Assembly: GCA_013298815.1 (NCBI GenBank)
Contig: JAAFJF010000002.1
Coordinates: forward strand, 2,191-66,190
Source: Polaromonas sp.
GTDB taxonomy: Bacteria; Pseudomonadota; Gammaproteobacteria; Burkholderiales; Burkholderiaceae_C
Length of the DNA stretch: 64,000 nt
Direction: 5' to 3'
A program made the translations under genes and the position numbers. Each line of letters opens with the position of its first letter. The first letter of the stretch is position 1. Under the pieces are notes generated by a model that did no database searches, had not been told where the DNA came from, and saw only the letters and a program-made list of their open reading frames with translations. Positions 1,565-63,285 of the stretch are shown here, piece after piece.

Positions 1565-1612
1565 TAGCCTGCGTATTTACTGCCTTAGCAGCTATTAAAT
1601 TTATAGTATATT
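1565..1612 (-). repeat. dispersed intergenic repeat, copy 1
   Basis: The reverse complement reads ACTATAAATTTAATAGCTGCTAAGGCAGTAAATACGCAGGCTAAG. Confidence 0.8.
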
Positions 1613-1629
1613 TAAATCGCATTGAATGT

Positions 1630-2730
1630 ATGAAAAGACGTGAATTAGTAAGTACCGCCCTACTGCTATCCGCCAGTTTGCCGTTCAACATCGCAAAAGC
1701 CGCCCCCGCCGCCACTTCTGCAACCCATACGGGCTGGCGCATGCCGGACGAGTCAGAGCCGCACACATGCACTTGGATGGCGTTTGGGGCTAATAAAACC
1801 ATTTGGGGTGCAAAGTTGCTGCCAGAAGTACAGCGTAACTTGGCATTGATTGCCAACACCATCGCTAAGTACGAGCCCGTCAACATGCTTGTGAACAGCC
1901 GAGATTTGACATTGGCGCACAGCCTTGTGGGCAAAAATGTGACCTTAATCGTCTGCCCGCTGGACGACTTGTGGGTGCGAGATACGGGCCCAGTGTTTGT
2001 CAGCAAGCAAGGTAAAAAGGCAGGAATTCAATTCAACTTCAACGGCTGGGGCGAAAAACAGGCGTTCAAGCAGGATGCTTTGGTCGCTGGTTTTGTGGGG
2101 AAGCAAGCCAAAGTTGAGTTGATGCAAACCAAGCTGGTGCTCGAAGGTGGCTGCATAGAGGTGGATGGCCACGGTACGGCCATCATGACAGAAAGCTGTA
2201 TTTTGAACGACAACCGCAACCCCGGCATTGGCAAAGAAGCTGTTGAGACTGAACTGAAACGCCTGCTGGGGCTGCAAAAAATCATTTGGCTGCCTGGTAT
2301 CAAAGGCAAAGACATTACCGATGGGCACACCGATTTTTACGCCCGTTTTGCCAGCCCAGGCGTGGTAATGGCTGGTTTTGACCCAGATACCGCTTCTTAT
2401 GACCATACGGTAACCGTGAAGCACTTAGAAATACTGAACAACACCACAGACGCACAAGGCCGTAAACTAGAAGTCATCACCTTAAAAGCACCCAGCAGTG
2501 TGAGAAAAGCCTTTGAAAACAAAGAGTTTGCTGCAGGCTACATCGGCTTTTACGTTTGTAATGGCGCTGTGATTGCGCAGGAGTTCGGCGATGCAAAAGC
2601 GGACGCCGTCGCCAAAGCCAGCTTGCAACGCGCCTTTCCTGGGCGAGTAATTGAGCAGCTAAATGTGGATGGGATTGCCGCCGGTGGGGGCAGCATCCAC
2701 TGCGCGACACAGCAAGAAATTTGGGCTTAA
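1630..2730 (+). CDS. agmatine deiminase / Porphyromonas-type peptidyl-arginine deiminase family enzyme with a Tat-like signal peptide
   Basis: 366 aa. Family motifs are WRMPDESEPHTCTWMAF, DDLWVRDTGPVFV, GHTDFYARF and the C-terminal catalytic GGSIHCATQQ. The N-terminus MKRRELVSTALLLSASLPFNIAKA resembles the Tat signals of SoxB, SoxY and FccB in this window. Confidence 0.85.
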   Translation: MKRRELVSTALLLSASLPFNIAKAAPAATSATHTGWRMPDESEPHTCTWMAFGANKTIWGAKLLPEVQRNLALIANTIAKYEPVNMLVNSRDLTLAHSLVGKNVTLIVCPLDDLWVRDTGPVFVSKQGKKAGIQFNFNGWGEKQAFKQDALVAGFVGKQAKVELMQTKLVLEGGCIEVDGHGTAIMTESCILNDNRNPGIGKEAVETELKRLLGLQKIIWLPGIKGKDITDGHTDFYARFASPGVVMAGFDPDTASYDHTVTVKHLEILNNTTDAQGRKLEVITLKAPSSVRKAFENKEFAAGYIGFYVCNGAVIAQEFGDAKADAVAKASLQRAFPGRVIEQLNVDGIAAGGGSIHCATQQEIWA

Positions 2731-2763
2731 TTAGGTATTGATTAGGTATTGATTAGGTATTAA
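2731..2763. repeat. tandem repeat, 3 x 11 bp (TTAGGTATTGA)
   Basis: Read directly: ttaggtattga ttaggtattga ttaggtattaa, starting one base after the stop codon of the deiminase gene. Confidence 0.9.
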
Positions 2764-2810
2764 TTAGAGCTTAATTCGGACATAATTAAGGCATAAATTA
2801 ACTATGACCA

Positions 2811-2848
2811 GCATTTTTACTGCCTTAGCAGCTATTATATTTATAGCA
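2811..2848 (-). repeat. dispersed intergenic repeat, copy 2 (truncated, lacks the GCCGGCTAGAG arm)
   Basis: The reverse complement reads CTATAAATATAATAGCTGCTAAGGCAGTAAAAATGC. Confidence 0.7.
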
Positions 2849-3088
2849 ACCAAAATTACTTTTTGCACCGCACCAAATCAGCACACGGGTCACCCACACG
2901 ACTACTTAAGCTCTAGACAAAAAGCACCTCCTTGGTGCTTGGGCTTACTTTCAAACCCTATTGGTGCATCGCTGTTTTTCACGCAATTATTTTTGGTGTT
3001 TTTTTGAACTGACGCTTTCGAATTACGGGTTTTCCCGTAGTAGATTTCTATAATTGTTTCAACAGTTACACATTTCAACCTTAAATTC

Positions 3089-3982
3089 GTGAAGAAAGTC
3101 ACAAATATGTCAATTATTAGCCCCCGACATCAAGCGTCTATGTCAAGTGCTTCTGGCGCAATCAGCGGTCAAATGTCCCGCCGTTCTTTGATTCGGTTGG
3201 CAGTCCTTAGTTTGGCGCTGCCGGCTGCTCATTCAGCCTATGCAGAAATATCGCTTGCCACGGCGATCAACCGATGCGCGCGTTTTCGCGCTTTGTCGCA
3301 GCGCGGCGCCAAAGCTTATGCGCAACTGGCTTTGAATGTCATGCCTGAGGCTGCTCAAAAAACGCTGGCAACTGTACAGCGTTTGTTTCAACAAGGCTTT
3401 GAAGATTTGGCGCAGGCAAGTTTGACACCAGATCTTGTCAAACAAATTGCTGTTCTGCAGGGGGAGGCTACCAAATTACTGGCCCTGATTAACGAAAAGC
3501 CTAAGCTCGAGCAGCTGGTCATGGTTAATACGCAGGCGGACAAAGTATTGAGTTTGGCGCACAAAGCCACGGAAGCTCTATCGCAAGCATCTGCATCTGC
3601 TTCTAAAGCTGCCAGTGGCAAAATCATTGACATGGCGGGACGCCAGCGGATGCTGTCACAGCGGATGGCTAAAAACTACTACTTGACTGCCGCAAATGTG
3701 AATTTAACGGCCGCAACGCAACAAATCCAGCAAGACAAAATCGAATTCAATGCGGCGATGGCAGTGCTGATTAAAACGCCGATTTCAACCAACGCCATCC
3801 GAGAAGACTTAGAACTGTGCTCTGCGCAATGGTTTTTGTTTGAGGGTGCTCTAGATTTGCCACGCAACCGCGCTGACGCGATGAAGAACGTTGCTAGCAC
3901 TAGTGAGCGTTTATTGGAGTTGACTAACAGTTTGACAGATAAGTACGAAAAAGCTTTGAAAGACGTGCTGGGTAACGTCTAA
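3089..3982 (+). CDS. secreted PilJ/NarX-type N-terminal sensor-domain protein (paralog A)
   Basis: 297 aa, with a GTG start at 3089 or an ATG at 3107. It has a signal-like RRSLIRLAVLSLALPAAHSAYA. INRCARFRALSQRGAKAY and AGRQRMLSQRMAKNYYL are the duplicated helix motif typical of the type IV pili MCP N-terminal (PilJ) / NarX periplasmic domain. No transmembrane or output domain is present. Confidence 0.7.
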   Translation: MKKVTNMSIISPRHQASMSSASGAISGQMSRRSLIRLAVLSLALPAAHSAYAEISLATAINRCARFRALSQRGAKAYAQLALNVMPEAAQKTLATVQRLFQQGFEDLAQASLTPDLVKQIAVLQGEATKLLALINEKPKLEQLVMVNTQADKVLSLAHKATEALSQASASASKAASGKIIDMAGRQRMLSQRMAKNYYLTAANVNLTAATQQIQQDKIEFNAAMAVLIKTPISTNAIREDLELCSAQWFLFEGALDLPRNRADAMKNVASTSERLLELTNSLTDKYEKALKDVLGNV

Positions 3983-4024
3983 TTTTGTGTTTAATTTTGT
4001 GTTTAATTTTGTGTTTAATTTGTA
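3981..4024. repeat. tandem repeat, about 3.7 x 12 bp (AATTTTGTGTTT)
   Basis: Read directly, immediately after the stop codon of the 3089..3982 ORF. Confidence 0.9.
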
Positions 4025-4073
4025 CCTGAATTTCCTGTAGGATTGGTGTTAAGTCAACTGCAGGACAGGCTTT

Positions 4074-4928: not shown

Positions 4929-4942
4929 CATTTTGAGAATAT

Positions 4943-4954
4943 GTGAATATTCAC
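4943..4954. promoter_or_regulatory. perfect 12-bp palindrome GTGAATATTCAC (candidate operator)
   Basis: Read directly in the intergenic region between the P4H-like gene and PilJ-domain paralog B. Confidence 0.3.
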
Positions 4955-5014
4955 GCGACACTGTCGCCCCAAGTCCACACAAAAGTAATCCAAAGTTATT
5001 AATATTGCTAGAGA

Positions 5015-5036
5015 GTTTGTAATATTTATTACAAAC
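5015..5036. promoter_or_regulatory. perfect inverted repeat GTTTGTAATA-TT-TATTACAAAC (candidate operator)
   Basis: Read directly. It has 10-bp arms and a 2-bp spacer, and ends 30 bp upstream of the ATG at 5067. Confidence 0.4.
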
Positions 5037-8593: not shown

Positions 8594-10342
8594 ATGTGGA
8601 CTTACAACGCCCCGCTGCGGGACATGCACTTTGTGATTGAAGAAGTCTTGCAAGCGCCCACCGCTTGGGCGCAGACGCCGGCTTTTGAGGATTTGGATGC
8701 AGACACATCACGCCAGATTTTGGAAGAAGCCGGCAAGTTTGCCAACGGCGTGCTAGCTCCTATCAATGGGGCGGCTGACCTTGAAGGCTGCAAATGGGTG
8801 GATGGCAACGTTACCACCCCGCAAGGCTACCCCGCTGCTTACAAAGCTTATGTCGAAGGCGGTTGGCCGGCGCTGGCGTGCGACCCCGCCTACGGTGGCC
8901 AGGGGTTGCCGCAGTTGCTGAACGCGGCGTTGAACGAGATGATTGCAGCCGCCAACCACGGCTGGACCATGTACCCCGGCTTGCTGCACGGCGCGTATGA
9001 CTGCATCAAAGCGCATGGCAGCGATGCGCTCAAAACTCGCTATCTGGAAAAACTGACCAGCGGCGAGTGGCTGGCGACCATGAATTTGAGCGAACCGCAA
9101 GCTGGCAGCGACCTGAGCCAAGTGCGCACCAAGGCAGAAGTCGGCCCCAGGACGGATGATGGCGAGAGTTGGTTGATCACTGGCAGCAAAATCTGGATTT
9201 CGGGCGGCGACCAGGATATGACCGATAACATCGTCCACCTCGTGCTGTGTCGTCTGCCGGATGCAACTGCGGGCAACAAAGGTTTGTCGCTGATGGTTGC
9301 ACCCAAGTTTTTGCCGGATGGCTCGCGCAACAAGATCCGCTGTGATGGCATTGAGAAAAAAATGGGCATCAAAGGCAGCGCCACAAGCGCCATGAGCTTT
9401 GAAGCCGCGACCGGCTGGCTGGTGGGTGAGCCGCACAAGGGCCTGACAGCCATGTTTGTGATGATGAATTCTGCCCGCCTGCACGTTGCCATGCAAGGCT
9501 TGGGGCATTTGGAGATGGCGCAGCAAAATGCCCACGCCTACGCCAGCGAACGTGTGCAAGGAAAAATTAATGGCCAAATCGGCACGATCGACCAACACCC
9601 CGCCGTGCGCCGCAACCTGTGGAGCTTGCGGTCGTTATGTGAAGGCGAGCGCGTGATCGCCTACTGGACGGCGCAACTGCTGGACGAGGCGCACAGCCAC
9701 CCCGACGCAGCACAGCGCGCCAAGGCGGAAGACTTGGTCGCACTGCTCACCCCCGTGGCCAAAGCGTTTTTCACCGACAACGGCAACCGAGGCGCGAACG
9801 AGGCGCTGCAGGTGTGGGGCGGCTACGGCTATGTGCATGAGTACGGCATCGAGCAAACCGTGCGCGACAGCCGCGTTGCCATGATTTACGAAGGCACCAA
9901 CGAAATCCAGGCCATTGACCTGCTACAGCGCAAGATCATGGCGGACGGCGGCGCCAAGCTGCTGGATTTGCTAGCGGTGTTGGAACAAGAACTTGAAGTC
10001 GGCGCGGGTGTGCCTGAGTTGAATGAATTTACCAACGCGCTACGCGCCCAGATCGCCGCCACCCGCGAAGCCGTGGGCGCGCTGCTCGCGGCGCGGGAGG
10101 CTGCCCCCGACTGGTCGCTGCGTGTGGCGGATGACTTTTTACGTGGACTCGGCTTCACGCTATTAGCCTGGGCCTGGGCACGCAGCGCGCGGGTTGCCTT
10201 GCCGCAAGTGGCCGACGCTTGGTACGCAGACAAAGTCAAAGCCGCCCGCTTTGGTGTGCAGTGGCTGCTACCTGAAGCGAACTACCGTTGGCAACGGGTG
10301 ATGGCGCGGAACGCTGTTTTGCCTGAAATTGGCTGCAATTAA
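8594..10342 (+). CDS. long-form acyl-CoA dehydrogenase (about 580 aa class with extra N- and C-terminal domains)
   Basis: 582 aa. Supporting motifs are NLSEPQAGSDL, KIWISGGD, the catalytic region YEGTNEIQAIDLL, and VQVWGGYGYVHEYGIEQ. It starts MWTYNAPLRDMHFV, as in the DmdC/FadE-like long ACADs. Confidence 0.85.
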   Translation: MWTYNAPLRDMHFVIEEVLQAPTAWAQTPAFEDLDADTSRQILEEAGKFANGVLAPINGAADLEGCKWVDGNVTTPQGYPAAYKAYVEGGWPALACDPAYGGQGLPQLLNAALNEMIAAANHGWTMYPGLLHGAYDCIKAHGSDALKTRYLEKLTSGEWLATMNLSEPQAGSDLSQVRTKAEVGPRTDDGESWLITGSKIWISGGDQDMTDNIVHLVLCRLPDATAGNKGLSLMVAPKFLPDGSRNKIRCDGIEKKMGIKGSATSAMSFEAATGWLVGEPHKGLTAMFVMMNSARLHVAMQGLGHLEMAQQNAHAYASERVQGKINGQIGTIDQHPAVRRNLWSLRSLCEGERVIAYWTAQLLDEAHSHPDAAQRAKAEDLVALLTPVAKAFFTDNGNRGANEALQVWGGYGYVHEYGIEQTVRDSRVAMIYEGTNEIQAIDLLQRKIMADGGAKLLDLLAVLEQELEVGAGVPELNEFTNALRAQIAATREAVGALLAAREAAPDWSLRVADDFLRGLGFTLLAWAWARSARVALPQVADAWYADKVKAARFGVQWLLPEANYRWQRVMARNAVLPEIGCN

Positions 10343-10452: not shown

Positions 10453-11982
10453 TTACACTTTAACTTGCATACGTGGCGTTTTCGGCCAATCGAGGTGAAA
10501 GAATTCACCACGCGGTTTGTCGGTGCGCTCGTAGGTGTGCGCACCGAAGTAATCACGCTGGCCTTGCAACAAGTTGGCAGGCAAATTAGCGCTGCGGTAA
10601 CCGTCGAAATAAGCCAAAGCTGAGCTGAAAGCGGGCACGGCGATGCCATGCTGCACGGCCAAGCCAATCACTTTACGCCAGTTGTTTTGCGCGTCGTGTA
10701 AGGCGTTGGTGAAATAGCTGTCCAACATCAGGTTTTTCAAATCCGGTTGGGTGTTGTAGGCGTCGGTGATTTTCTGCAAAAACCGTGCGCGGATGATGCA
10801 ACCGCCACGCCAAATTTGAGCGATGGTTGCGAAATTCAACGTCCAGTTGTATTCTTTCTCAGCCTCTTTCATGAGCTGGAAGCCTTGTGCGTAGGCGCAG
10901 ATTTTGGAGCAATACAAGGCATCTTGAATGGCGGCGATGATGGTTTCACGGTCCTTTTCAAATGGCAATTGCGGGCCTTTCAAGATTTGGCTGGCTGCCA
11001 CGCGCTCGGCTTTAAGGGCTGACAGAGCTCGCGCAAAAACAGCCTCAGCAATCGCGTTAGCGGGTGCGCCCAACTCCAACGCGTTGGCCGCTGTCCACAT
11101 GCCTGTGCCCTTTTGCCCTGCTGTGTCCAGCACTTTGTCGACCAAAAAGGTTTGTCCGCTGGCATCTTCTGGGTCTTTTTGTTGCAAGATGTCTGCGGTG
11201 ATTTCGATCAAGAAGCTGGACAGTGTTCCCTTATTCCAAGAGTCAAACACTTTGCCAATTTCGCCTGCGCTCATGCCCAGCATGTTTTTCATCAAGGCAT
11301 AGGCTTCGCATATGAGCTGCATGTCGATGTACTCAATGCCGTTGTGCACCATTTTGACGTAGTGGCCTGCGCCATCCGGGCCAATGTGGGCTGTGCACGG
11401 CACGCCGCCTACCAGTGGGTGGCCAGGCGTTGCGCCGTCTAGCTGTTGCCCTGTGACAGGGTCAACCTTGGCGGCAATATCGCGCCAAATGGGTTCTAAC
11501 GATGCCCAAGCTTTGGCAGAGCCACCTGGCATCAACGACGGGCCAAAACGAGCGCCGGTTTCACCACCTGAGACGCCAGATCCGATGAAGGCAAAACCTT
11601 TGGCGCTGAGTTCCTTTTCACGGCGAATCGTGTCACCCCACAAAGCGTTACCTCCGTCTATGATGATGTCGTCCGCTTCTAAATGGGGCATCAGTGATGC
11701 AATCGTATCATCAGTCGCCGCGCCCGCTTTGACCAGCAAGATGATTTTGCGGGGGCGTTTGATGTTGCGCACGAATTCGGCAACATCGGTATAACCGGAG
11801 ACGCGTGGTGCTGAGGGTTCATTGGCCTTGCACTGAGCAATGAAGTCCGACGTGCGCTCGGAGTTGCGATTGAAAACGGCGATGTTGTAGCCGTGGTCAG
11901 CAATGTTGAGTGCTAAGTTTTGCCCCATTACGGCTAAACCTACTAGGCCAATGTCTGATGATGCATTCATGGATGTTGTCAT
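10453..11982 (-). CDS. gnd: 6-phosphogluconate dehydrogenase, decarboxylating
   Basis: 509 aa. Supporting motifs are [63 protein letters not shown] and [16 protein letters not shown]. Confidence 0.9.
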
Positions 11983-17956: not shown

Positions 17957-18472
17957 TCAATGATGCAGTTTCCTGATTTTGAACATGCTCAAAATTGCTA
18001 TCAATGCAAGACTGCAAAAACACGCAAAAGACCAATTCGCAATCGATCCACCTAAAAAGGTCCAATCAACTTTGGTGCAATCACCAGAACCCTTCAAAAT
18101 CATAGGAACAAGGTTTTGCAGCGGAAACGTCTCAATCATGCCGTAAATATCGCGCCCACACGATGCGATTTCAGGCGGGTACCACTGAAGCCAGCTTTGA
18201 CGCGCTGCCACAAACGCTCCACCCAGCGCGGTGATGATAACCAACCAAGAAGCGCTGATTTGAATGCCTCTTATCCCAGTAGCCGATGCAATAATTGCCC
18301 ATACAGCTATTAAAATAATAGCATATCGTTGCACAATACACATCGGGCATGGCTCCAAACCGCCAACGTGTTGCAAATAGAAGCCAAAACAAAGCATGGC
18401 AACGCAGCCCACAGCTATCAAAGCCATGATTTGTCTAAAACTAAACCGGTCTAAAAAACTCAAAGCATTCAA
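17957..18472 (-). CDS. dsbB: disulfide bond formation protein B
   Basis: 171 aa with four TM helices, the first periplasmic CxxC (EPCPMCIVQRY) and a second Cys pair (SCGRD...GDCTKVDW). Confidence 0.85.
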   Translation of the reverse strand: MNALSFLDRFSFRQIMALIAVGCVAMLCFGFYLQHVGGLEPCPMCIVQRYAIILIAVWAIIASATGIRGIQISASWLVIITALGGAFVAARQSWLQWYPPEIASCGRDIYGMIETFPLQNLVPMILKGSGDCTKVDWTFLGGSIANWSFACFCSLALIAILSMFKIRKLHH

Positions 18473-26400: not shown

Positions 26401-26460
26401 TTCACTATACTTTTTATAGCTGCTTAGGCAATAAATACGCTGGCTAGAGGCATATTTTTA
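26401..26460 (+). repeat. dispersed intergenic repeat, copy 4
   Basis: It reads TTCACTATACTTTTTATAGCTGCTTAGGCAATAAATACGCTGGCTAGAGGCATATTT. Confidence 0.85.
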
Positions 26461-31044: not shown

Positions 31045-31110
31045 TAGATTAAAAATACTATGAAATTAATAGCTGCTCAGGCAACAAATACGCCGGCTAC
31101 AGCCGAAAAT
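31045..31110 (+). repeat. dispersed intergenic repeat, copy 6 (overlaps start of DUF934 ORF)
   Basis: It reads AAAAATACTATGAAATTAATAGCTGCTCAGGCAACAAATACGCCGGCTACAGCCGAAAATG. Confidence 0.8.
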
Positions 31111-31470
31111 GGCACTGAAAATGGTGTTTTGTTCATTGCCAACGACGCCAACCCGCTGGAAAGCAACTTGGCAGGCATCAAAACCATCGTCCTGAACTTC
31201 CCCAAGTTCACCGACGGCCGCGCCTTCACCCAGGCCGTCATGCTTCGCAAACGTGCTGGTTTCACAGGCGAGATTCGCGCGACGGGCGATGTACTGGTCG
31301 ACCAGTTGCAGCAAATGGCACGCAGTGGTTTTGACGTAGCTGAGTTGCGGGCGGACCAGGATTTGGCCGCTGGACAGCGCCAGTTGGACCGTTACTCCGA
31401 GTTTTACCAAGCTGACGTGGTGCAAAAAGCACCGCATTTTGCTAACAATGCTTCAAAGGTAGCAGCATGA
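31060..31470 (+). CDS. DUF934 domain protein (commonly follows cysI in betaproteobacteria)
   Basis: 136 aa. The core is VLNFPKFTDGRAFTQAVMLRKRAGFTGEIRATGDVLVDQLQQMARSGFD. The first 15 or so codons are formed by a copy of the dispersed repeat. Its stop overlaps the cysH start by 4 nt. Confidence 0.7.
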   Translation: MKLIAAQATNTPATAENGTENGVLFIANDANPLESNLAGIKTIVLNFPKFTDGRAFTQAVMLRKRAGFTGEIRATGDVLVDQLQQMARSGFDVAELRADQDLAAGQRQLDRYSEFYQADVVQKAPHFANNASKVAA

Positions 31471-33413: not shown

Positions 33414-33468
33414 CACTATAAATTTAATAGCTACTCAGGCAATCAATACGCCGGCTAGAGTGCTAAAT
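33414..33468 (+). repeat. dispersed intergenic repeat, copy 7 (abuts cysN start)
   Basis: It reads ACACTATAAATTTAATAGCTACTCAGGCAATCAATACGCCGGCTAGAGTGCTAAATG. Confidence 0.85.
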
Positions 33469-36500: not shown

Positions 36501-37811
36501 ATGAAATTGAAAGCTTCCCTAGCCATAGCCATAGCCTTTGGCTTGATGGCCGGCATGGCACACGCTGCCACTGAAATCGTCGTGGCGACCGTGAACAACG
36601 GTCACATGATCGAGATGCAAAAACAAACCAAACACTTTGAAGCCGCGAATCCGGATATCAAAGTGAAATGGGTCACTTTAGAAGAAGGTGCACTGCGCGC
36701 CCGCGTTACCACTGACATCGCCACCAAAGGCGGTCAGTTCGACGTGATGACCATCGGTATGTACGAAACACCGATTTGGGGTAAAAAAGGCTGGTTGAAC
36801 GAACTCAAAACCAGCGCTGCATACGACGCAGACGACATCTTGCCAGCGATGTGCAATGGCTTGTCAGTTGACGGCAAAATGTACGCAGCCCCGTTCTACG
36901 GCGAAAGCTCCATGTTGATGTACCGTAAGGACTTGGCAGACAAAGCTGGCGTGACTGTTCCTAGCAACCCAACTTGGGCACAAGTGAAAGACTTGGCAGC
37001 TAAGATTCACAACCCTAAAGAAGGCGTTTACGGTATTTGCTTGCGCGGCAAACCAGGCTGGGGTGACAACATGGCTTTCTTGACCACCTTGGTGAACACA
37101 TCAGGCGGCCAATGGTTTGACATGAAGTGGAAACCACAATTGGAATCCAAGCCTTGGAAAGACGCGATCACCTTCTACGTTGATTTGTTGACCAAATACG
37201 GCCCACCAGGCTCAGCTAACAACAGCTTCAACGAAATTTTGGCTTTGTACAACGAAGGCAAATGCGGTATGTGGATTGACGCGACCATCGCAGCATCTTT
37301 CATTACAGATCCTAAGCAATCTAAAGTAGCTGACAAAGTGGCTTTCGCACAAGCACCAACCATGGTGACACCAAAAGGTGCCAATTGGTTGTGGGCATGG
37401 GCTTTGGCAATTCCAGCAGGAACTAAAAATGCTGCTGCAGCACAAAAGTTCATCGAATGGTCAACCTCTAAAGAGTACATCAACCTGATCGGTAAAGAAG
37501 TGGGCTGGGGCAATGTGCCAACAGGTACTCGCAAAAGCACCTACACCAACGAAAACTTCTTGAAAGCCGCTAAGTTTGCAGTTGCAGAGAAGGCCGCTAT
37601 CGACAGCGCTAACCCGAACGACGCGACTTTGCCAAAGAGCCCATACGTCGGTGTACAGTTTGCTGCGATTCCTGAGTTCCAAGCCATTGGTATCGCAGTG
37701 GGTCAGCAAATGAGCGCAGCTTTGGCAGGCAAAACCACTATCGACAAAGCTTTGAAAGCTTCTCAGGTAGCAGCTGAGCGTGAAATGAAGAAAGCCGGCT
37801 ACTACAAATAA
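36501..37811 (+). CDS. polyol/sugar ABC transporter substrate-binding protein (SmoE/MtlE-like, CUT1)
   Basis: 436 aa with a signal peptide ending in AHA-ATE. It belongs to extracellular solute-binding family 1 and is the first gene of a binding-protein/two-permease/ATPase/dehydrogenase cluster. Confidence 0.8.
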   Translation: MKLKASLAIAIAFGLMAGMAHAATEIVVATVNNGHMIEMQKQTKHFEAANPDIKVKWVTLEEGALRARVTTDIATKGGQFDVMTIGMYETPIWGKKGWLNELKTSAAYDADDILPAMCNGLSVDGKMYAAPFYGESSMLMYRKDLADKAGVTVPSNPTWAQVKDLAAKIHNPKEGVYGICLRGKPGWGDNMAFLTTLVNTSGGQWFDMKWKPQLESKPWKDAITFYVDLLTKYGPPGSANNSFNEILALYNEGKCGMWIDATIAASFITDPKQSKVADKVAFAQAPTMVTPKGANWLWAWALAIPAGTKNAAAAQKFIEWSTSKEYINLIGKEVGWGNVPTGTRKSTYTNENFLKAAKFAVAEKAAIDSANPNDATLPKSPYVGVQFAAIPEFQAIGIAVGQQMSAALAGKTTIDKALKASQVAAEREMKKAGYYK

Positions 37812-45264: not shown

Positions 45265-45314
45265 GTCAAAACGCACACTTTAGTATTATTAATTTTATAC
45301 TGTTGCTATATTTT

Positions 45315-45400
45315 GTATAGCCGCTTAGGTAGTTAAATCATGGGCTTTTATCATATTTGAATCTTAAAAATTACTATTAAATTGATAGCAAATTTAAAGT
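45315..45400 (+). repeat. dispersed intergenic repeat, copy 9 (degenerate, plus a separate left-arm fragment)
   Basis: It reads TGTATAGCCGCTTAGGTAGTTAAATCATGGGC. At 45370..45400, TTACTATTAAATTGATAGCAAATTTAAAG matches the outer arm of copy 3. Confidence 0.5.
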
Positions 45401-45504
45401 CGATTTTGTGTGATTATTCACATGAAAATATTTAAAAATCACAGTGAATTTTTCTTAAATAGAAGAAATACTGCTCTAATAGCTCTCCAGGGCTTATTAC
45501 AGGC

Positions 45505-49465: not shown

Positions 49466-50173
49466 TTATTTGTTCACCGGAGACTGAGGATCCAGCAACA
49501 GCGCCATGACGTGCTTGACTTGCTGCTCAGTCAAAATGCCAGCATCACCAAACCTAGGCATGTTGCTACACAAATTGACAGAATGCGTATTCCAAATCCG
49601 AGCCCATGTGTATTTGACGATAGCTTCTGAATCTTTAGAGGTGACATCTTTAACGCCACGAATCGTGCCGTACTTCATCAGTGATGGGCCTTGGTTGCCG
49701 AAACTGATTTCAGTCGGTGTCAACTGGTGACAGGCATAGCAATTTGCACCATTGGGCACGCCAGCCACATCACTGAATTGCAATCCACGTCCGTTTTGGG
49801 CAATTTTTTCACCTTCTTTCCAATCCCCTGTGTAATTACCATCTTTGGGGTAAGGAATCGCAGCGTAAATAGCTTGCTCCATCTTCTCGCGCGTCGCTTT
49901 AGGCACCTCTTTGCCACTGGACAGCGATTCAGAACAGACTTTTTGAATCTCCGTTTGATCCAACCTATCAAGCTTAGCAAGGCCTCGTTCTGCGAAACTT
50001 CCCTTGATAGTTGCAAGAACCTCAGCAGCACTAGGTTTTTGCACAGAGCTTGATGCACAGCTGGCGAGCATAGCTATACATGCAGTTAGAATGGACAATT
50101 TAGCTACATTTTTAATAGCAGTAGAGGCATATAAAACGGTGGCTGATAGCTTATTTATCATAATAAATCTCAA
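49466..50173 (-). CDS. soxX: sulfur oxidation c-type cytochrome SoxX
   Basis: 235 aa with a single haem site NCYACHQL, followed by GNQGPSLMKYG and NMPRFG. Its position between soxA and soxB supports the call. Confidence 0.8.
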   Translation of the reverse strand: MRFIMINKLSATVLYASTAIKNVAKLSILTACIAMLASCASSSVQKPSAAEVLATIKGSFAERGLAKLDRLDQTEIQKVCSESLSSGKEVPKATREKMEQAIYAAIPYPKDGNYTGDWKEGEKIAQNGRGLQFSDVAGVPNGANCYACHQLTPTEISFGNQGPSLMKYGTIRGVKDVTSKDSEAIVKYTWARIWNTHSVNLCSNMPRFGDAGILTEQQVKHVMALLLDPQSPVNK

Positions 50174-52112: not shown

Positions 52113-53267
52113 CTATTTGACCGCCCCTTGCGAAATCCAAGTTGCCACTTTTTTTGCATCCGTATCACTCAAACTTTGTGCTGGCATCGGCATGCTTCCG
52201 TAAACACCTGACCCACCACTTTTTATTTTTGCAGTTAGATAGGCCACCGCATCTGCCTTACTGCCCTGCTTTGCAAGTATTTCTTTAAAACTTGGCCCAA
52301 CAATTTTATTGTCGATGCCATGACAGGCCAAACATGCGTTTTTGCTCAAAATGCCAGAAACATCAGCACTTTTTAGTGATGTATTAGATTCCACAGATTT
52401 CTCAACTGTTTTAGCCGCTGCAACTGTGATAGCGGGGATGACGACCGCTTTTTTAGCATCAGCACCTGTACTCACGGCAGGTTTGGTTGTATCTGCACCT
52501 ACTGAAGGACCAAAAGCACGCGTTTGCTCTGCCAAATTGCCGTGCGCATTACGCGCATGCTCTGGCAACAAGCTTGCAACCTTGGCTTCCGTCACGCAGT
52601 TAGTCATACAGTTAGAGCCTTGCGTATCTGGCTTGGTGACGCCGCCAAACTCATTACCTGGCCACATCGCGTGCTTGGTCATCATGCCATTTCTGTTTGG
52701 CAATTTGTTTTGAGTTTCCACCATATTTTTATCACTCAAGGTGAAGTTTTCTGGCACCACATTGGCGATATTAAGCAGGTATGCTGTCACAGCGTAAACC
52801 TCATTCGGCTTTAATGATTTCGGCGCTGTCCACGGCATGGCACGGTTGATGTAATCCCACAGAGTTGACAGTTGCGAGACTTTCATCATCGTGGTACGGG
52901 TGGGCGTTGCAGCCTCGGGCATCAGGCTGGCAACACGACCTGTTTCAACGTCTTTCTTCGTGGTGTAACCCACCAAAGCGCTGAAAACCGTGTTGTTTTC
53001 ACCAAAGCTGCCATGGCAAGATGCACACTGCGCTTCCCACACTTTTTCACCTTGCGCTACACTGCCCATGCCTTTCGGCAAGCCTTTGAAGTCTGGCCTA
53101 ACATCAATATCCCACGCTGCAACTTCATTTGTCGTTGCAACTCTACCAACAGCCTCGTATTTCCCCTGAGAAATGCCTGTAGCAGGCGTCATTATTGTCA
53201 AAGCTGCTATTATTTTTGCAATCATTTGCGACTTAAAATTCGATGAAAAATCAAGATAATTGAACAT
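52113..53267 (-). CDS. soxD: dihaem cytochrome c SoxD
   Basis: 384 aa as listed. An alternative start at 53225 would remove the 17-nt overlap with soxC. It has two haem sites, CASCHG and CLACHG. Confidence 0.8.
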   Translation of the reverse strand: MFNYLDFSSNFKSQMIAKIIAALTIMTPATGISQGKYEAVGRVATTNEVAAWDIDVRPDFKGLPKGMGSVAQGEKVWEAQCASCHGSFGENNTVFSALVGYTTKKDVETGRVASLMPEAATPTRTTMMKVSQLSTLWDYINRAMPWTAPKSLKPNEVYAVTAYLLNIANVVPENFTLSDKNMVETQNKLPNRNGMMTKHAMWPGNEFGGVTKPDTQGSNCMTNCVTEAKVASLLPEHARNAHGNLAEQTRAFGPSVGADTTKPAVSTGADAKKAVVIPAITVAAAKTVEKSVESNTSLKSADVSGILSKNACLACHGIDNKIVGPSFKEILAKQGSKADAVAYLTAKIKSGGSGVYGSMPMPAQSLSDTDAKKVATWISQGAVK

Positions 53268-57707: not shown

Positions 57708-58973
57708 TTAAAACCGCGGCTTGACGGTTGACCAATCGGGTCTGAACTTTTGCATCTGCGTCACGTCGTTGCGTGTGCGAATTCGGCAAGTCAAAAACGC
57801 TTGATGTAGATCAGCCAATTTTGCTTGGTCTAACTCTACACCCAAACCCGGCTTGTCCGTCAGATGCACGCAACCACCCACAATAGGCACTTTGCCACCG
57901 ACCAAAATTTCGTCGCTCTGCCACGGGTAATGCGTGTCGCAGGCATAAGTCAAATGGTGCACCGAAGCCGCCAAATGCGTCATCGCCATCAAGCTGATGC
58001 CCAGATGTGAGTTCGAATGCATAGATAAACCCATGCCAAACGCTTGGCACGTCCGCGCCAAAGCCTGCGTCGCCCGCAAACCGCCCCAATAGTGGTGGTC
58101 AGACAGCACAATTTGAACTGAGTTCAATTCAACGCTGCGCTTCAAATGGTCCCACGATGTCACCACCATGTTGGTCGCCTGTAGCAAGCCGGTCGCTTTG
58201 TAGACCTCGGACATGCCTTCCAAGCCCGGCGTCGGATCTTCGTAATATTCCAAATCATTCGCCAACCGCTTGGCGATGCGGATACTGGTGGGGATAGACC
58301 AATTGCCATTGGGGTCAATCCGCAGTTGGTGGTTCGGGAAAGCGGCTTTGAGGGCTTTGATCGCATCGGCCTCTTCATCTGGCGGAAACACACCGGCTTT
58401 GAGCTTGATGCTCTCAAAGCCGTATTGCTCAATCATCTTCTTGGCCTGCGCGACGATTTGCGCGGGGTTCACCGCCTCGCCATACGGGTCGGGCGCGTAT
58501 TCTGGGTCAACACTGGCGTCCCATTTGTAGAACAAATAAGCCGAATAGGCCACTTTGTTGCGCACTGCCCCGCCCAAAAGCTCTACCAACGGAATGCCCA
58601 AGGTACGAGCCTGCAAGTCTAAAAACGCCACCTCAAAGCCTGAAAACACGCTGCTCGTCAGGTTGTCACCCATGGAACCAGGAGCGAGCTCCATCTCAAT
58701 ATGCGCAGTTTTGGTGAGTTTGGACTCGGCGATCACCATGCCCAGCAAGCCATTCAAGTCAAAAGCCGACAACCCCACCAAACTGTCCTTCACACGCGTC
58801 AGCAAGTCCAACACTGGCGCATCGCCATAGGTTTCGCCCAAACCGACCATGCCGTTAGCGCCCACAACCTCGATGATGGAGCGCAGCCCAAAAGGCTCAT
58901 GCACCCCAGCGGCGTTTAGCAAAGCAGGGTCTTTGATGGCGATGGGCGTCACCCGAACAGCAGAAATTTTCAT
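57708..58973 (-). CDS. glucarate dehydratase-like enolase-superfamily enzyme (GudD/GudX-like)
   Basis: The track ORF reaches 59075. I prefer the ATG at 58973 (MKISAVRVTPIA...). IKLKAGVFPPDEEADAIKALKAAFPNHQLRIDPNGNW, YYEDP, ATNMV, SDHHYWGG and SMHSNSHLGISLMAMTHLAA are collinear with my recollection of E. coli GudD. Confidence 0.8.
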   Translation of the reverse strand: MKISAVRVTPIAIKDPALLNAAGVHEPFGLRSIIEVVGANGMVGLGETYGDAPVLDLLTRVKDSLVGLSAFDLNGLLGMVIAESKLTKTAHIEMELAPGSMGDNLTSSVFSGFEVAFLDLQARTLGIPLVELLGGAVRNKVAYSAYLFYKWDASVDPEYAPDPYGEAVNPAQIVAQAKKMIEQYGFESIKLKAGVFPPDEEADAIKALKAAFPNHQLRIDPNGNWSIPTSIRIAKRLANDLEYYEDPTPGLEGMSEVYKATGLLQATNMVVTSWDHLKRSVELNSVQIVLSDHHYWGGLRATQALARTCQAFGMGLSMHSNSHLGISLMAMTHLAASVHHLTYACDTHYPWQSDEILVGGKVPIVGGCVHLTDKPGLGVELDQAKLADLHQAFLTCRIRTRNDVTQMQKFRPDWSTVKPRF

Positions 58974-59100
58974 GGTAGCGAGTTCAATCTTAGAGGACAT
59001 CAATGAAGTAGCACCGATTATAGTCATCGGTTGTCTGATGACCTGTATTTTGCAATTACACCTTAAAGTTGTCAAGTGCGAATCAATCTCACAAGTAAAC

Positions 59101-59184: not shown

Positions 59185-60561
59185 TCAATTGATTTTAAGC
59201 TTCAAGGCCAAGACTTTCGCCGCCACACACTTGCCCTGAACCTGCCCACCTTCTACACCAAAGCGGAAGTGGATACCTGCATACAGACGCGACAAGGCGG
59301 CTTCGTTAGCTGCGGCGTTGAAGCTGGTGAAGGTGCGCGGACCCCAGCCTCGGTCGTTGTGGGTGTTGTCGGTGAAAGCGGTGTTTTCGCCGAAGATTTG
59401 GTTCAACACGCCGGCTGCTGCGCTGGATTGGACGGAGTGGCCTGACGGATATTCAGGGAACGGCGGCGTTGTCATCAAGCTGGGCACCCAGTTGCTGTTG
59501 AAAGAGCCTTGCACGTAGGTGACGGGACGCAGCACGTTAAGGGCGTATTTGGTCGCCCAGCCGGCGGTGAAGGCGTCAGACATGGCGATATTCAGACGCG
59601 CCAGCGTTTGAGCGGCATCGGCTAGGTTAGCTTTGCGGGTTTTGAGTAAATCGTTGGCGATAAACAGCCAATGGCCTGCTGGTGTGGGTGTTTTAGCTGG
59701 GTCATCCGCCCAATAGAGCGCAAATTGACGCTGCTCTTGCGTGGCGGCGTTGCTGATGTTATAGACCTCTTGCGCGTTTTTATAGAAGACCGAGCTTGGC
59801 TCTTCAGAATACTCCGGCGGCGGCGGTGCTGGGCAATCTTTCACAGACTTCAAGACGAAGGGGCGATTTTCACCCCAGTAGGGCAACAACGGTTTCGCAA
59901 ACGCGGGGGGCGTGGCCGTCCAGCGCCCTGCACCGCTTGGCGGCACGTAATTAGCGCGGTTACGGCGCAACGGGCCCCAGGCTTCGTGGCCGCCATCGGT
60001 ACGCGCCCAGGTCATGATCGCCATGGCCATGAGTTTGCCATAGGAATCAGAGCGGTTGATGATTTCTGGCGTATAGGTATTCGGGTCAAAATCTTGGCCA
60101 TATTTGAGCGGTAAGCTGCGCTCTAGCTGGTCGATGCGGCCTTTGTTTTCAGCCGTAGCATTGCTAAACATCATGCGCGTCATCATGGCCATCGATGCGT
60201 TTGCCACGGTGGGCCAATGCAGAGGTTCGTCGGGCTGCGCCACTGGCAAGGAGTTGAGTTCGTTTAACTGCCCCGCCAAGCTGGTGTAACCGGGCATACC
60301 AGGAACGATAGATTCGTACAACGCCAAGCCCAAATAGCCAAAAGCACGCGCTGCGACGGGAGGGCTAAAACCCGGAGTTTGCTGGGTCAGCGACAGCGCC
60401 AGCGATGTCCACTCGGTCGAGACTGCGGCGCTATAAGTGTCTGCCGTACGGGTGGCGACGCTTGCCGTTTGCTGTGTAGTTTGAGCTTGAACTTGTGTTG
60501 TCAGACCTACAACGACCAAAGCGGCAGTCAGCGTGTTGATTAAGAATTGATGCATGTTCAT
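59185..60561 (-). CDS. secreted PAP2-superfamily / vanadium-dependent haloperoxidase-like protein
   Basis: 458 aa with a signal peptide. The C-terminal PAP2 motifs are PFPEYPSGHSVQSSAAAGVL and SRLYAGIHFRFGVEGG. It has a long helical N-terminal region, as in bacterial vanadium haloperoxidase-like proteins. Confidence 0.7.
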   Translation of the reverse strand: MNMHQFLINTLTAALVVVGLTTQVQAQTTQQTASVATRTADTYSAAVSTEWTSLALSLTQQTPGFSPPVAARAFGYLGLALYESIVPGMPGYTSLAGQLNELNSLPVAQPDEPLHWPTVANASMAMMTRMMFSNATAENKGRIDQLERSLPLKYGQDFDPNTYTPEIINRSDSYGKLMAMAIMTWARTDGGHEAWGPLRRNRANYVPPSGAGRWTATPPAFAKPLLPYWGENRPFVLKSVKDCPAPPPPEYSEEPSSVFYKNAQEVYNISNAATQEQRQFALYWADDPAKTPTPAGHWLFIANDLLKTRKANLADAAQTLARLNIAMSDAFTAGWATKYALNVLRPVTYVQGSFNSNWVPSLMTTPPFPEYPSGHSVQSSAAAGVLNQIFGENTAFTDNTHNDRGWGPRTFTSFNAAANEAALSRLYAGIHFRFGVEGGQVQGKCVAAKVLALKLKIN

Positions 60562-62252
60562 GGTGCTTTCCCAACATTCACAGCTTCCGCTTTACCAGCC
60601 GATTTATCCATCACATAAAAACCATCCGCAGCAACGGTTTGCCAGGGGCCGAAGTCTGAGAAAGGCCATTGCACACGGACTTTGACCGTGGTTGCCGCAC
60701 CCAAACCAAAATGCATCCAGCCCATGTGTCCACTGGCATGACCGCCGCCAACAGTGAGCTCTTGGCGGATGATGCGCTGCTTGCCAAGTTGCTGCATGGC
60801 ATCGCCCAAATCAACTTCAACCCATGCGCCAACCGCGTCACGGTTTCCACCAGCCTGCTTCAGCCGTAATTGCAGCCAATGCCCTGCAGCGCCCATGGAC
60901 GATGGTTTTTCAGCCGTGCCTGGCCCTTGGTTACCTAGATTACGCCAGAGTTGAGCCTTATCCCAACGGTTGACGACGACCATGTCTAACAAGCCATCAC
61001 CATTCAAATCCGCCAACATGCCACCGCGTCCACGCCCCACACTGGCTATGTTGGCGAGTTGCCCTGCCTCATAGAAGCGACCATCGGTTTGCTGTAGCAG
61101 CAGATTATTGGGGTCTAAGGCAGCGAAATCGGGCATGGTTGAAATATTGCCCTTGACAATGAAGATATCAGCCAAACCATCATGGTTAACATCGGCAAAT
61201 TGCGAATGCCAAGCAGTAGAGGGGTGAATATCACCGCCTACGTAAGGGCGATGAGCTGTGACGCCTCGTTTGTAAGCAACGTCAACATATTCAGGTTTAG
61301 AAGCTTTGCCGGAGGCGTCAAGTTGCAATTTTTGCAATTTGTTGTCTGCCATGCTGGTCAAATACAGCTCTGGGTAGCCATCGCCGTCGATGTCTTGGCT
61401 GGCAATGCCCATGCCCCAAATTTGCATTGGCTTCCAACCCTGCGCTTCCGTGAATAGGGTTGGAGGCTGACCTGTGGCAATTTTCCACAACTGTTCTTGC
61501 CCACCTTTGTAAAACTCACGGTCATTGCTGACGCGCAAATCTGGCGTGCCTTTGCGACCCCAGTCTGAAAATAGCATGGACAAAGCACAATATGCGGGCT
61601 CAAGCTTCACTGGTTCTGCAAACCCATTGCCAGCGCTATTCGGCCTGAGCAAAACGCCTGCTGTGCAACTTCCCCATGGAAACTCAGCCAACTTAGCGCG
61701 ATCAATATACGTGCCAATCGCTAAAGTTGGCCATTTTTGATCTTTTTCCCAAGTCGCAGAAAAAGCGGTGTGCCACTCGTTGCCTGTTTTGACGCCCCAC
61801 TTTGCCGTTGCGCGCTCAAACTTGCAAGCACCTAAACCTCTGAAAACTTCAACCTCGCCCACGCGCAACACAACCAAATCCGTATTGCCATCGCTGTCGA
61901 TATCTAGCGGATACGCACCAATAGCATTGGTCAGCTCTAAACCGCTGCGTTCTTCTAGTAATTTTAGTACGCCTCCACGAACGCTTTTGTTGCGGTAAAA
62001 CTTGGCTTTGTTGACGCCTGCGGTCACATAGAGTTCGGGCAGCCCATCGCCATCACAATCAAACGTTGCCACGCCACCGCCAACCATGAATTCATCTTCA
62101 CCTTCAAAGCGGCTTTGTAAGCCTGCGCTGTCGGTTTCTTCTACAAATTTTGGAACAGCAGGCACAGTCGCAGCAACTTGCGCCGAAACCGGCAGCATAG
62201 CCGTTTGCAGCGCTACGGAACATATCAGAAGAGTTTTAACAAAATTAGACAT
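60558..62252 (-). CDS. secreted FG-GAP/VCBS repeat protein with ASPIC/UnbV-type C-terminus (CRTAC1 family)
   Basis: 564 aa with a signal peptide. It has repeated Ca-binding-like loops (DCDGDGLPELYV, DIDSDGNTDLVV, DIDGDGYPELYL, DVNHDGLADIFI, DLNGDGLLDMVV). The C-terminus reads TVGGGHASGHMGWMHFGLG. Confidence 0.8.
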   Translation of the reverse strand: MSNFVKTLLICSVALQTAMLPVSAQVAATVPAVPKFVEETDSAGLQSRFEGEDEFMVGGGVATFDCDGDGLPELYVTAGVNKAKFYRNKSVRGGVLKLLEERSGLELTNAIGAYPLDIDSDGNTDLVVLRVGEVEVFRGLGACKFERATAKWGVKTGNEWHTAFSATWEKDQKWPTLAIGTYIDRAKLAEFPWGSCTAGVLLRPNSAGNGFAEPVKLEPAYCALSMLFSDWGRKGTPDLRVSNDREFYKGGQEQLWKIATGQPPTLFTEAQGWKPMQIWGMGIASQDIDGDGYPELYLTSMADNKLQKLQLDASGKASKPEYVDVAYKRGVTAHRPYVGGDIHPSTAWHSQFADVNHDGLADIFIVKGNISTMPDFAALDPNNLLLQQTDGRFYEAGQLANIASVGRGRGGMLADLNGDGLLDMVVVNRWDKAQLWRNLGNQGPGTAEKPSSMGAAGHWLQLRLKQAGGNRDAVGAWVEVDLGDAMQQLGKQRIIRQELTVGGGHASGHMGWMHFGLGAATTVKVRVQWPFSDFGPWQTVAADGFYVMDKSAGKAEAVNVGKAP

Positions 62253-63243
62253 TCACCCAAGCACCGGTTTTTTCAGACATAAATAAGGCATCAATGACAC
62301 GCATGTTCAAAATTGCGTCTTCAACACCATACGGCAAGGTCATTTCGCCACGCACCACCTTAGAAAATGCATCACCCTGCAAACCGTACATATTGCAGGC
62401 CGGCAAGGTGTGTTTTTGCATAGATGAACCATTTAGCGCACCACCATCGTCCAAAAAATAATCAGTTTCACCACCCAATGGTGCATTGAAAGGTATTTGT
62501 ACTTCGATCCGCTTTTTAGTTCCCACCACCTGCACGCGCTGGTGCGACACAGATTGCGTGGAAACCGTGAAATCCAATCGACGTCCATCACCAAAATCTA
62601 GCAAAGCACTGACGGTACGATCAACTTTGAAGTCAGGGTCGCGGTCAACCAAGGCAATGACGCGCCTGGGTTCGGCATCAAACAAAAACCGACCCATCAC
62701 AATCGGGTAGCAACCAATATCGTACAACGCACCACCGCCAATTTCATACTTGTTACGGATGTTGTTAGTGTCGCGGTTGAAGTACGAAAAGAAAGCTTGC
62801 ACGGTTCGCAAATCGCCCAATTCGCCACTGCGCACACGCTCACGCACCTGCAGCCATTGCGGATGAAAGCGTACCATGAAGGCTTCCATGATGTGCACTT
62901 TGCCGGCCACCTCACGCAGCTGCGCTGCTTCGTTGGCGTTGATGGCAAAGGGTTTCTCGCACAACACATGCTTACCCGCTCGCGCTGCTTGCAGCGTTAA
63001 CGGCACATGCAAATCGTTGGGCAAAGGGTTGTAAATGGCTTCAATCTCAGGGTCAGCCAGCAAAGCCTCATACGAACCGTAGGTTTTGGGAATACCCAGC
63101 TTAGCCGCCCACTCATCTGCTTTGCCGGGCGCACGCGAGGCGATGGCTCGCACATCGCAGAACTCGCTCTGTTGCATAGCAGGGATAACCTTCTCCCAAC
63201 CAATTTTGGCGGTACTAAGAATACCCCATACTACTTTTTTCAT
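62245..63243 (-). CDS. Gfo/Idh/MocA family NAD(P)-dependent oxidoreductase
   Basis: 332 aa with the N-terminus VVWGILSTAKIGWEKVIPAM and the EKP motif (VLCEKPFA). It overlaps the downstream FG-GAP gene by 8 nt. Confidence 0.85.
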   Translation of the reverse strand: MKKVVWGILSTAKIGWEKVIPAMQQSEFCDVRAIASRAPGKADEWAAKLGIPKTYGSYEALLADPEIEAIYNPLPNDLHVPLTLQAARAGKHVLCEKPFAINANEAAQLREVAGKVHIMEAFMVRFHPQWLQVRERVRSGELGDLRTVQAFFSYFNRDTNNIRNKYEIGGGALYDIGCYPIVMGRFLFDAEPRRVIALVDRDPDFKVDRTVSALLDFGDGRRLDFTVSTQSVSHQRVQVVGTKKRIEVQIPFNAPLGGETDYFLDDGGALNGSSMQKHTLPACNMYGLQGDAFSKVVRGEMTLPYGVEDAILNMRVIDALFMSEKTGAWVNV

Positions 63244-63285
63244 AGCTATAATCCTAATAAATACGCCGGCTAAAGGCTAATTTAA
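63243..63285 (+). repeat. dispersed intergenic repeat, copy 12 (partial)
   Basis: It reads ATAGCTATAATCCTAATAAATACGCCGGCTAAAGGCTAATTTAAG, starting at the start codon of the Gfo/Idh/MocA gene. Confidence 0.6.

Follow-up and report, generated by a model that had tools for sequence, protein, structure and literature searches.

What is a short repeat that recurs throughout a bacterial genome, how old is it, and what keeps it alive? The stretch of Polaromonas sp. DNA analysed here (the window: 64,000 nucleotides, C12:2191-66190 of the genome that we call G000) poses this question, as it carries at least a dozen copies of a short AT-rich repeat. An initial annotation had described the copies as an intergenic family without a strong internal hairpin, possibly a protein-binding site, a small-RNA module or a degenerate MITE (a miniature transposable element with inverted repeats). 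We favour, with moderate confidence, the reading that they are old, vertically inherited, REP-like non-autonomous repeats of the Comamonadaceae-type family of bacteria, present here in one lineage's version and kept by an enzyme resembling the REP-associated tyrosine transposases (RAYTs), by short-patch gene conversion, or by both.

A repeat of spacers and genes

A profile built from 11 window copies, iterated once and run with nhmmer on G000 (3.33 Mb in 90 contigs), found about 660 copies, 323 on one strand and 337 on the other, and no match in the reversed, uncomplemented genome. A search with the core pattern gave 384 matches versus none for the backwards pattern, which was absent from 41 genomes. 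With about 660 genomic copies and none in the reversed control, the family is neither limited to the window nor a product of low complexity. The repeat unit is 60 nt long and AT-rich (consensus AATTTGCTATAAATTTAATAGCTGCTTAGGCAGTAAATACGCCGGCTAGAGGCATATTTA), and the GC content of the window is about 50%. Conservation of core positions reaches 90-100%, position 27 being the sole highly variable core base. The most frequent 16-mers in a genome-wide count all derive from this repeat, which is the dominant repeat family of this Polaromonas-like genome. A scan of named genomes detected the core pattern in metagenome-assembled genomes labelled Polaromonas sp., Burkholderiaceae, Comamonadaceae and Rhodoferax sp.; glacier-fed streams are the source of many of these genomes.

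Genes were defined with a crude codon-usage caller of open reading frames (ORFs; 2982 genes, 88% coding), so that the class counts are approximate: 310 of the 660 copies lie in spacers, 73 overlap a gene end and 277 are wholly within ORFs. The intragenic share is 42% of all matches and 32% (151 copies) at 40 bits or more. Spacer copies are placed as REPs are, mainly just downstream of genes. Spacers of at least 60 nt hold 0.65 copies each if convergent, 0.23 if co-directional and 0.12 if divergent; the median copy in co-directional spacers stands 25 nt past the upstream stop codon, and gene ends are overlapped by 60 copies at the 3' end versus 18 at the 5' end. Beyond the 3' end of spacer copies, at +62 to +105 counted from the element start, C-rich positions alternate weakly with A/T runs every 10-11 nt or so; phased A-tracts, or a 3' extension under loose conservation, could lie behind this.

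At least a third of the copies lie in frame within genes, as segments of 18-21 residues in loops, linkers, signal peptides and one transmembrane helix. Host genes include purL, mutS, mutL, pepN, putA (two copies), tex, icmF, a penicillin-binding protein (PBP) gene, lpxB and dsbB. All 10 host ORFs sampled at random resemble ordinary proteins; seven sampled host ORFs were scanned against Pfam and all seven matched, five of them with a domain match that spans the copy (LpxB, ECH_2, MM_CoA_mutase, ABC_tran and tRNA_U5-meth_tr). All six frames are used by the 277 intragenic copies, 218 of which stand in the two frames where the consensus has a single stop codon; these frames encode ..AINxIAAQAVNTPA.. 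and ..NMPLAGVFTAS/LAAI.. peptides. Position 27 decides the stop in both. It is T in 65% of spacer copies; in genic copies of the same frame it is C in 67% and C, A or G in 92%, and in those of the opposite frame G or A in 65%. The changes at this position in genic copies are exactly those that remove TAG, TAA and TGA, and copies in frames with several stops carry the extra changes needed and score lower. From this avoidance of stop-creating variants we infer that the intragenic copies are translated in frame with the host protein. Their removal from RNA or protein is unlikely, because stop avoidance would then be unneeded.

The effect of a copy on protein length differs between hosts. Tex, MutS, an ABC ATPase and RumA are 15-27 residues longer than their counterparts in genomes or profiles without the element, and only 0-2 residues change in IcmF, PutA (site 1), PepN, LpxB and methylmalonyl-CoA mutase. 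The copy in dsbB forms transmembrane helix 2 at unchanged length, in a gapless alignment to E. coli DsbB, and is covered by the Pfam DsbB domain (18272..18325). DsbB orthologues of genomes G055 and G046 are equally long and bear no likeness to the element at helix 2, and helix 2 of the G089 protein has the G089-type CATGGGCT. Because orthologues elsewhere carry such lineage-type bases, the dsbB copy is confirmed as an element. Some profile matches of 20-30 bits may be false; the idea that low-scoring intragenic matches are chance hydrophobic helices was rejected, as the reversed genome gave no match and the covariance model gave none in element-free genera.

Several N-terminal copies encode textbook signal peptides, including those of a DUF547 protein in the window and of a solute-binding protein. 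Copies in the same-strand frame at 22251-22340 and 53160-53225 of the window and at C50:12877-14253 of G000 read as Sec signal peptides or anchors, for example MMRFITVKFATFLIAALAVFTPASAVFA followed by QS, which suggests that the repeat peptide has been co-opted for export.

The copies of the window are as follows (scores are nhmmer bits unless stated).

1552..1611, minus strand: copy in the spacer between plus-strand genes 1169..1537 and 1630..2730; 54.3 bits, E 3e-14
2795..2849, minus strand: copy in the spacer between genes 1630..2730 (plus) and 3089..3982 (plus); 41.0 bits
10366..10425, minus strand: copy in a convergent spacer between 8594..10342 (plus) and 10453..11982 (minus); 61.9 bits
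18272..18325, minus strand: copy in dsbB (17957..18472, minus), encoding transmembrane helix 2 AIILIAVWAIIASATGI; 30.5 bits
22273..22333, plus strand: copy at the 5' end of a DUF547 gene (Pfam DUF547), encoding a Sec-type signal peptide KFATFLIAALAVFTPASAVFA followed by Q; 52.9 bits
26402..26458, plus strand: copy in the spacer left of a small toxin-antitoxin-like pair; 61.9 bits
27109..27171, plus strand: copy in the spacer right of the toxin-antitoxin-like pair, in direct orientation with 26402..26458; 53.5 bits
31054..31113, plus strand: copy over the start of a DUF934 ORF (31060..31470), giving ATG plus MKLIAAQATNTPATA by frame analysis; 57.0 bits
33414..33471, plus strand: copy in a spacer, ending at the ATG of gene 33467..34783; 54.0 bits
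37800..37854, plus strand: degenerate copy over the 3' end of gene 36501..37811; 29.6 bits
45306..45362, plus strand: weak, decayed copy in spacer 45265..45504; 68% identity by repeat search, sub-threshold in nhmmer
50103..50158, plus strand: copy among the initial codons of the longest ORF, 49466..50173 (minus), and oriented opposite to it (placed by translation); 28.2 bits
53171..53217, minus strand: copy within MIAKIIAALTIMTPATGI, the N-terminal signal or anchor region encoded by a dihaem cytochrome c gene (52113..53267, minus; Pfam cytochrome c); 27.1 bits
56552..56605, plus strand: copy in the spacer between two minus-strand genes; 45.2 bits
59099..59156, plus strand: copy in the spacer between 57708..59075 (minus) and 59185..60561 (minus); 56.6 bits
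63229..63286, plus strand: copy over the 5' end of 62245..63243 (minus) and the adjoining spacer; 29.0 bits

The profile thus places 15 copies in the window. Eleven of the 12 copies listed in the initial annotation were recovered by repeat search and nhmmer (E 1e-6 to 1e-16), and the twelfth, at 45306..45362, is a decayed copy with a 68% match that misses E 1e-3. The orientations had been counted correctly, with nine copies on the plus and three on the minus strand. That every copy sits in a spacer is true of the listed copies only, as four more window copies lie inside or at the start of genes. Residence in coding sequence had been overlooked, as had the spread of the family, its age, its concerted evolution at fixed sites and its link to a Y1 transposase.

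Some details of the window deserve mention. The two direct copies at 26402-27171, about 700 bp apart around the toxin-antitoxin-like pair, resemble a composite element in layout. The sole in-frame ATG of the DUF934 ORF (31060-31470) falls within the repeat copy, so that its N-terminus MKLIAAQATNTPATA as annotated is repeat-derived; a downstream start is possible. Likewise, the copy at 50103..50158 is extragenic if the true start of ORF 49466..50173 is further in. Over positions 1-16000, the cumulative GC skew climbs until about 12 kb, after which it declines steadily as far as the window end; this turn near 8-12 kb may mark a switch of replication direction.

Age of the copies and change at fixed sites

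High copy number and the use of both orientations would suit a conventional MITE, moved recently by a DDE transposase via terminal inverted repeats with target-site duplications, and the element ends form a weak inverted repeat, AAATTTGC...GCATATTT. This repeat matches at only 7 of 8 positions, versus the 15-30 bp expected of a MITE. Comparison within the genus contradicts recent movement: 115 of 129 syntenic sites (89%) are occupied in both genomes, and many sites are also shared between genera. Orthologous copies are 81% identical, versus 84% for their flanks, and have 626 deviations from the consensus in common versus 1010 private ones. As sites and old deviations alike are shared between orthologues, the copies were inherited rather than recently inserted. 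The 14 unmatched syntenic sites, when aligned, showed mostly decayed copies and no target duplication or clean empty site; one spacer site is possibly empty and is uninformative. Since equal-length replacement in DsbB is also incompatible with cut-and-paste insertion, we regard the MITE explanation as largely refuted and very improbable.

A first pattern search had made the element look genus-specific, matching 19 of 19 congeneric genomes and none of 22 other genera. A covariance model that uses sequence only overturned this picture. With up to 45 candidates scored per genome, it found subfamilies of their own, in many copies, in six or more other genera of the family, and one to three copies each in about 14 further genera. 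Other genera have a copy at the same sites in purL, mutS, pepN, icmF, putA, the PBP gene and tex. When eight host genes were aligned by codon, the sites proved to be filled in G089, G104, G046 and G055. Genome G020, whose sampled loci have about 70% GC, retains AT-rich relics there, and the mutS site reads CTA CAA AAA in nearly all genomes compared. Conversely, 7 of 11 sampled copies from other genera with two-sided synteny are matched by a copy at the same place in G000. Judged by these alignments, copies have occupied the same sites since before several genera diverged.

The sites are fixed, yet the bases that fill them differ by lineage. Diagnostic bases distinguish the TTAGGCA...ACGCCGGCT of G000 from the TTGAGCA...ACATGGGCT of G089, and at all eight orthologous gene sites the log-odds of the own versus the G089 profile are +24 to +40 bits for the G000 copy and -3 to -39 bits for the G089 copy. 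The mutS site exists in four lineage types (G000, G089, G104 and G046), and the deep congener G017 has an A23 state of its own at four of four sites. At fixed sites, then, the repeat evolves in concert. Genera share the site-specific changes by which the frame stays open, whereas the diagnostic bases differ by lineage, which suggests that the rewriting is patchy and filtered by selection.

The copies are also conserved at the DNA level, which we count in favour of the REP-like reading as well. Third-position synonymous identity in the element and in its flanks is 0.84/0.53, 0.74/0.59, 0.70/0.59 and 0.75/0.55 in element-bearing lineages, and pooled over family-carrying lineages it amounts to 136 of 179 sites in copies versus 1639 of 2875 in flanks (z about 4.8). 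Pooled over all other genera the excess is not significant (p = 0.24), and there is none where the family has decayed. A functional signal under purifying selection, namely a site for a co-evolving nucleoid, repair or regulatory protein, would account for this greater synonymous conservation and for the tolerance and conservation of copies even in essential genes. It would also fit the maintenance of the same sites across genera, the 90-100% conservation of core positions, and the A/T-ending rare codons kept in mutS and dsbB of the genome with sampled loci of about 70% GC. However, copy orientation shows no replication polarity against local GC skew (353:307) and no gene-strand polarity, and spacing is random and Poisson-like (coefficient of variation 1.02 versus 0.98 simulated). 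A replication-oriented or evenly spaced chromosome signal, such as Chi, KOPS, uptake sequences or domain boundaries, was rejected on these two results; 58% of neighbouring copies share their orientation. Moreover, sister genera differ greatly in copy number, from one match to at least the scoring ceiling of 45, G020, G022 and G019 hold the family in a decayed state, and parallel point mutation of the same five bases at hundreds of sites is implausible. We therefore consider a DNA signal unlikely as the main explanation.

Fold, candidate enzyme and mode of rewriting

The consensus can form three short hairpins, GCTAT-N7-ATAGC, CTGC-TTAG-GCAG and TAAATACGCC-N7-GGCATATTTA. A role of the repeat as an RNA module selected for its fold, that is, as small RNA, terminator, mRNA stabiliser or processing site, would agree with spacer copies just past stop codons and with the subfamilies of other genera, which have a GC-richer 3' hairpin with compensatory differences that looks terminator-like in G046. 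Against it, individual copies fold no better than shuffled sequence (z-scores of -0.7 to +0.6; -2.5 for the reverse-strand consensus). Mutual information over 660 copies gave neighbour effects only, with no covarying pair in this set or among 100 copies, and explicit tests of the 5', middle and 10-bp 3' hairpins found no more pairing than with shuffled partners. Copies lie in both orientations relative to transcription, those in six frames within genes cannot all be terminators, and Rfam 15 at gathering score matches no repeat copy and only one tRNA in the window. An RNA module is accordingly quite improbable.

These results also bear on the initial annotation. Its view that there is no strong internal hairpin roughly holds for individual copies, given their ordinary z-scores and lack of covariation, although the consensus does contain three short hairpins. 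The small-RNA module finds no backing in Rfam, covariation or folding. Its preference for a degenerate MITE over a structural terminator pointed in the right direction, towards a small non-autonomous REP-type repeat that stands mostly downstream of genes and maintains no hairpin. For the suggested protein-binding role, a RAYT-like enzyme is a likely candidate binder.

PF01797 is represented by exactly one gene in each of nine genomes with a match, and this is the sole HUH/Y1 transposase gene of G000. Its 234-aa product, in which HFH, GRYKS and YLDLNPVRAGLV are visible, matches Pfam Y1_Tnp above the cut-off (46.9 bits) and the NCBIfam model REP_Tyr_transpos (REP-associated tyrosine transposase) at 72.9 bits with a cut-off of 80, over profile positions 3-145 of 146. 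The only PDB match is 4ER8, E. coli TnpA-REP (E 0.0016). The gene is single-copy in 111 of 121 genera, and the upstream neighbour Methyltransf_32 is shared in four of nine loci compared.

In G000, copies of the repeat stand on both flanks of this gene, the 3' one being an inverted doublet. The 5' flank contains CAGCGTATTTACTGCC, which with 75 occurrences is the top 16-mer of the genome and ranks this flank at the 99th percentile among 1551 spacers; in the 3' flank the top 16-mer reaches 10 occurrences. Over-represented 16-mers in the flanks of a single-copy gene are diagnostic for RAYTs (PMC5581495). In most genera examined, the stop codon of the RAYT-like gene is followed by a copy or by its GCTAT-N7-GAT hairpin, and in G089 and G139 the copy beside the gene belongs to the genome's own dispersed subfamily. 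The locus has other features. A sigma-54-type promoter (TGGCA-N7-TTGCA) follows the RAYT-like gene before the next gene. Palindromic GGGGTCAGA(TT/CC)CCAATTA motifs surround it in most genera (G000 C71:600-650 and 7440-7840; loci L244-L272), with about 6 kb between the gene and the downstream motif pair in G000. The motif has only some 11 copies in G000, and GGGTCAGATTCCAATTA, considered as a second high-copy repeat, was dismissed for its count of about 11.

We propose that a copying or rewriting process acting on existing copies keeps the repeat population alive and homogenised. Its agent would probably be the domesticated RAYT/TIRYT-like HUH/Y1 transposase, whose own gene has a copy at the 3' end, and its substrate single-stranded DNA folded into hairpins. 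Gene conversion over short patches, from copy to copy, may contribute. Selection would purge any rewritten copy through which a gene acquires a stop codon or a harmful peptide. Most copies would probably be neutral passengers for the host, and some, such as those in signal peptides, would be co-opted.

Several points weigh against this proposal, beside the approximate class counts given above. The link between enzyme and repeat is, as far as comparison of loci goes, a purely positional one. The RAYT-like gene occurs in nearly all genera, but recognisable copies are abundant in few; G020 and G022 have kept the gene while their copies decayed, and G104 and G046 have many copies and none recognisable beside it. 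In addition, inverted repeats of the 'TIRYT' kind (PMC3733652), with the sequence GGGGTCAGA..CCAATTA, frame the gene, and such repeats around it (GGGGTCAGATTCCAATTA) could be the real substrate of the enzyme. Inverted overlapping doublets, unlike in REPINs, are found at only 2 of 658 sites, one of them beside the RAYT-like gene, and the element does not have the GTAG/CGTC tag of REPs at its stem end. The aligned unmatched sites offered no target duplication or clean empty site, and Y1 'peel and paste' gives no obvious account of an equal-length replacement as in DsbB.

There is a more far-reaching possibility, which we consider less likely than not: the repeat may also overwrite DNA in place, by templated short-patch copying of the lineage master onto old copies and occasionally onto element-like gene segments. 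The domesticated Y1 enzyme might catalyse this on single-stranded DNA, and targets in genes would be segments that resemble the element, such as Ala/Ile/Leu-rich helices and signal peptides. Overwriting would explain the copies of unchanged length in DsbB helix 2, IcmF, LpxB and methylmalonyl-CoA mutase, the strong bias to two frames that encode helix-like or signal-like peptides, and the lineage-specific bases at fixed essential-gene sites together with persistence across genera. If true, it would be a genome-wide molecular drive on protein-coding sequence.

Relation to known repeats and significance

REP and REPIN populations and RAYT transposases were reportedly also treated by Nunvar in 2010. 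Populations of REPs and REPINs with RAYT (TnpA-REP) transposases have been described by Bertels and Rainey 2011 (PMC3116915), Bertels et al. 2017 (PMC5581495) and Corneloup et al. 2021 (PMC8266576), and single-copy, vertically inherited RAYTs accompany long-lived REPIN populations (PMC5581495, PMC8049555). The present family resembles these systems in its hundreds of short copies that form the top 16-mer family and lie mainly downstream of genes, in the one single-copy, syntenic, vertically inherited HUH/Y1 gene flanked by copies, and in a lineage-specific consensus with very long persistence. It differs in several respects. REPs are 20-40 nt long with one GC-rich imperfect palindrome, whereas the unit here is 60 nt, AT-rich and has three weak hairpins; the 3' hairpin has CTAG or CTAC in its loop, and only about 23% of copies could present GTAG. 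Unlike in REP/RAYT systems, at least a third of the copies lie within coding sequence, and unlike curated RAYTs the enzyme scores below the RAYT model cut-off and has 'TIRYT'-type inverted repeats.

Repeats within genes are not new, as shown by the Rickettsia palindromic elements (RPE; Ogata et al. 2000, reviewed in PMC10969869 and PMC3733652) and by intragenic REPs of Opitutus, Xanthomonas and others (PMC3733652). Like RPE as reviewed there, the present copies are in frame and, as the stop avoidance suggests, translated within housekeeping genes unrelated to one another, those for DNA repair among them. They lengthen loops and linkers by about 20 residues, are of old age and stand at orthologous sites in relatives. 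The host here is free-living and cold-adapted, whereas that of RPE is an obligate intracellular bacterium. RPE is palindromic and 100-150 bp long, and the present unit, compared with it by description only, is half as long and not palindromic. The scale here is larger, as 151-277 copies or more are intragenic. Further features here are rewriting by lineage at fixed sites within genes, equal-length replacement of a native helix and a candidate enzyme; we know of none of these for RPEs. The enterobacterial palindromic units of Gilson et al. 1987 are said to have species-specific sequence at homologous locations, implying concerted evolution or co-evolution with a binding factor. Those units are intergenic and concern two enterobacterial species, whereas the pattern here lies within essential genes and extends over several genera.

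The beta-proteobacterial repeat element BRE (Hot et al. 2011, PMC3110155) is scattered through Bordetella and Comamonadaceae genomes; Polaromonas sp. JS666 has 29 copies, and some BRE copies lie wholly within coding sequences. Being about 90 bp long and 69% GC (PMC3110155), it is a different sequence family from the AT-rich repeat. The purL (C29:16477-20760), icmF (C1:210612-214016) and PBP (C56:32458-34758) genes of G000 also contain GC-rich repeat-derived peptides (VRPEPVEGFRQAQPERG, SVRPELVEGFTEASTSSARTALDSG and IPAQAGIH...DSRLRGNDS), so that in-frame translation extends to one or more further repeat families of this genome; this GC-rich repeat may be the BRE of PMC3110155. A limited literature search turned up no account of the AT-rich family, of intragenic copies rewritten lineage by lineage or of replacement at equal length.

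REP/RAYT systems are usually regarded as extragenic, and for in-frame repeats of the Rickettsia type we know hitherto of no candidate enzyme and no evidence of continuing homogenisation. The present family joins both kinds: it is REP-like and positionally tied to a domesticated tyrosine transposase, and at least a third of it resides in housekeeping proteins, fixed at the same codons across genera yet, as the lineage-specific bases suggest, still rewritten lineage by lineage. In practical terms, gene callers can be led astray where a copy lies at a start codon, and the copies raise the number of apparent 'insertions' when proteins of this group are aligned. With cultivable relatives in Polaromonas, the family offers a tractable system for the long-term persistence of repeat populations, in which one could ask whether RAYT-like enzymes act in conversion, beyond transposition, and how repeat-derived peptides turn into signal peptides, linkers and membrane helices.

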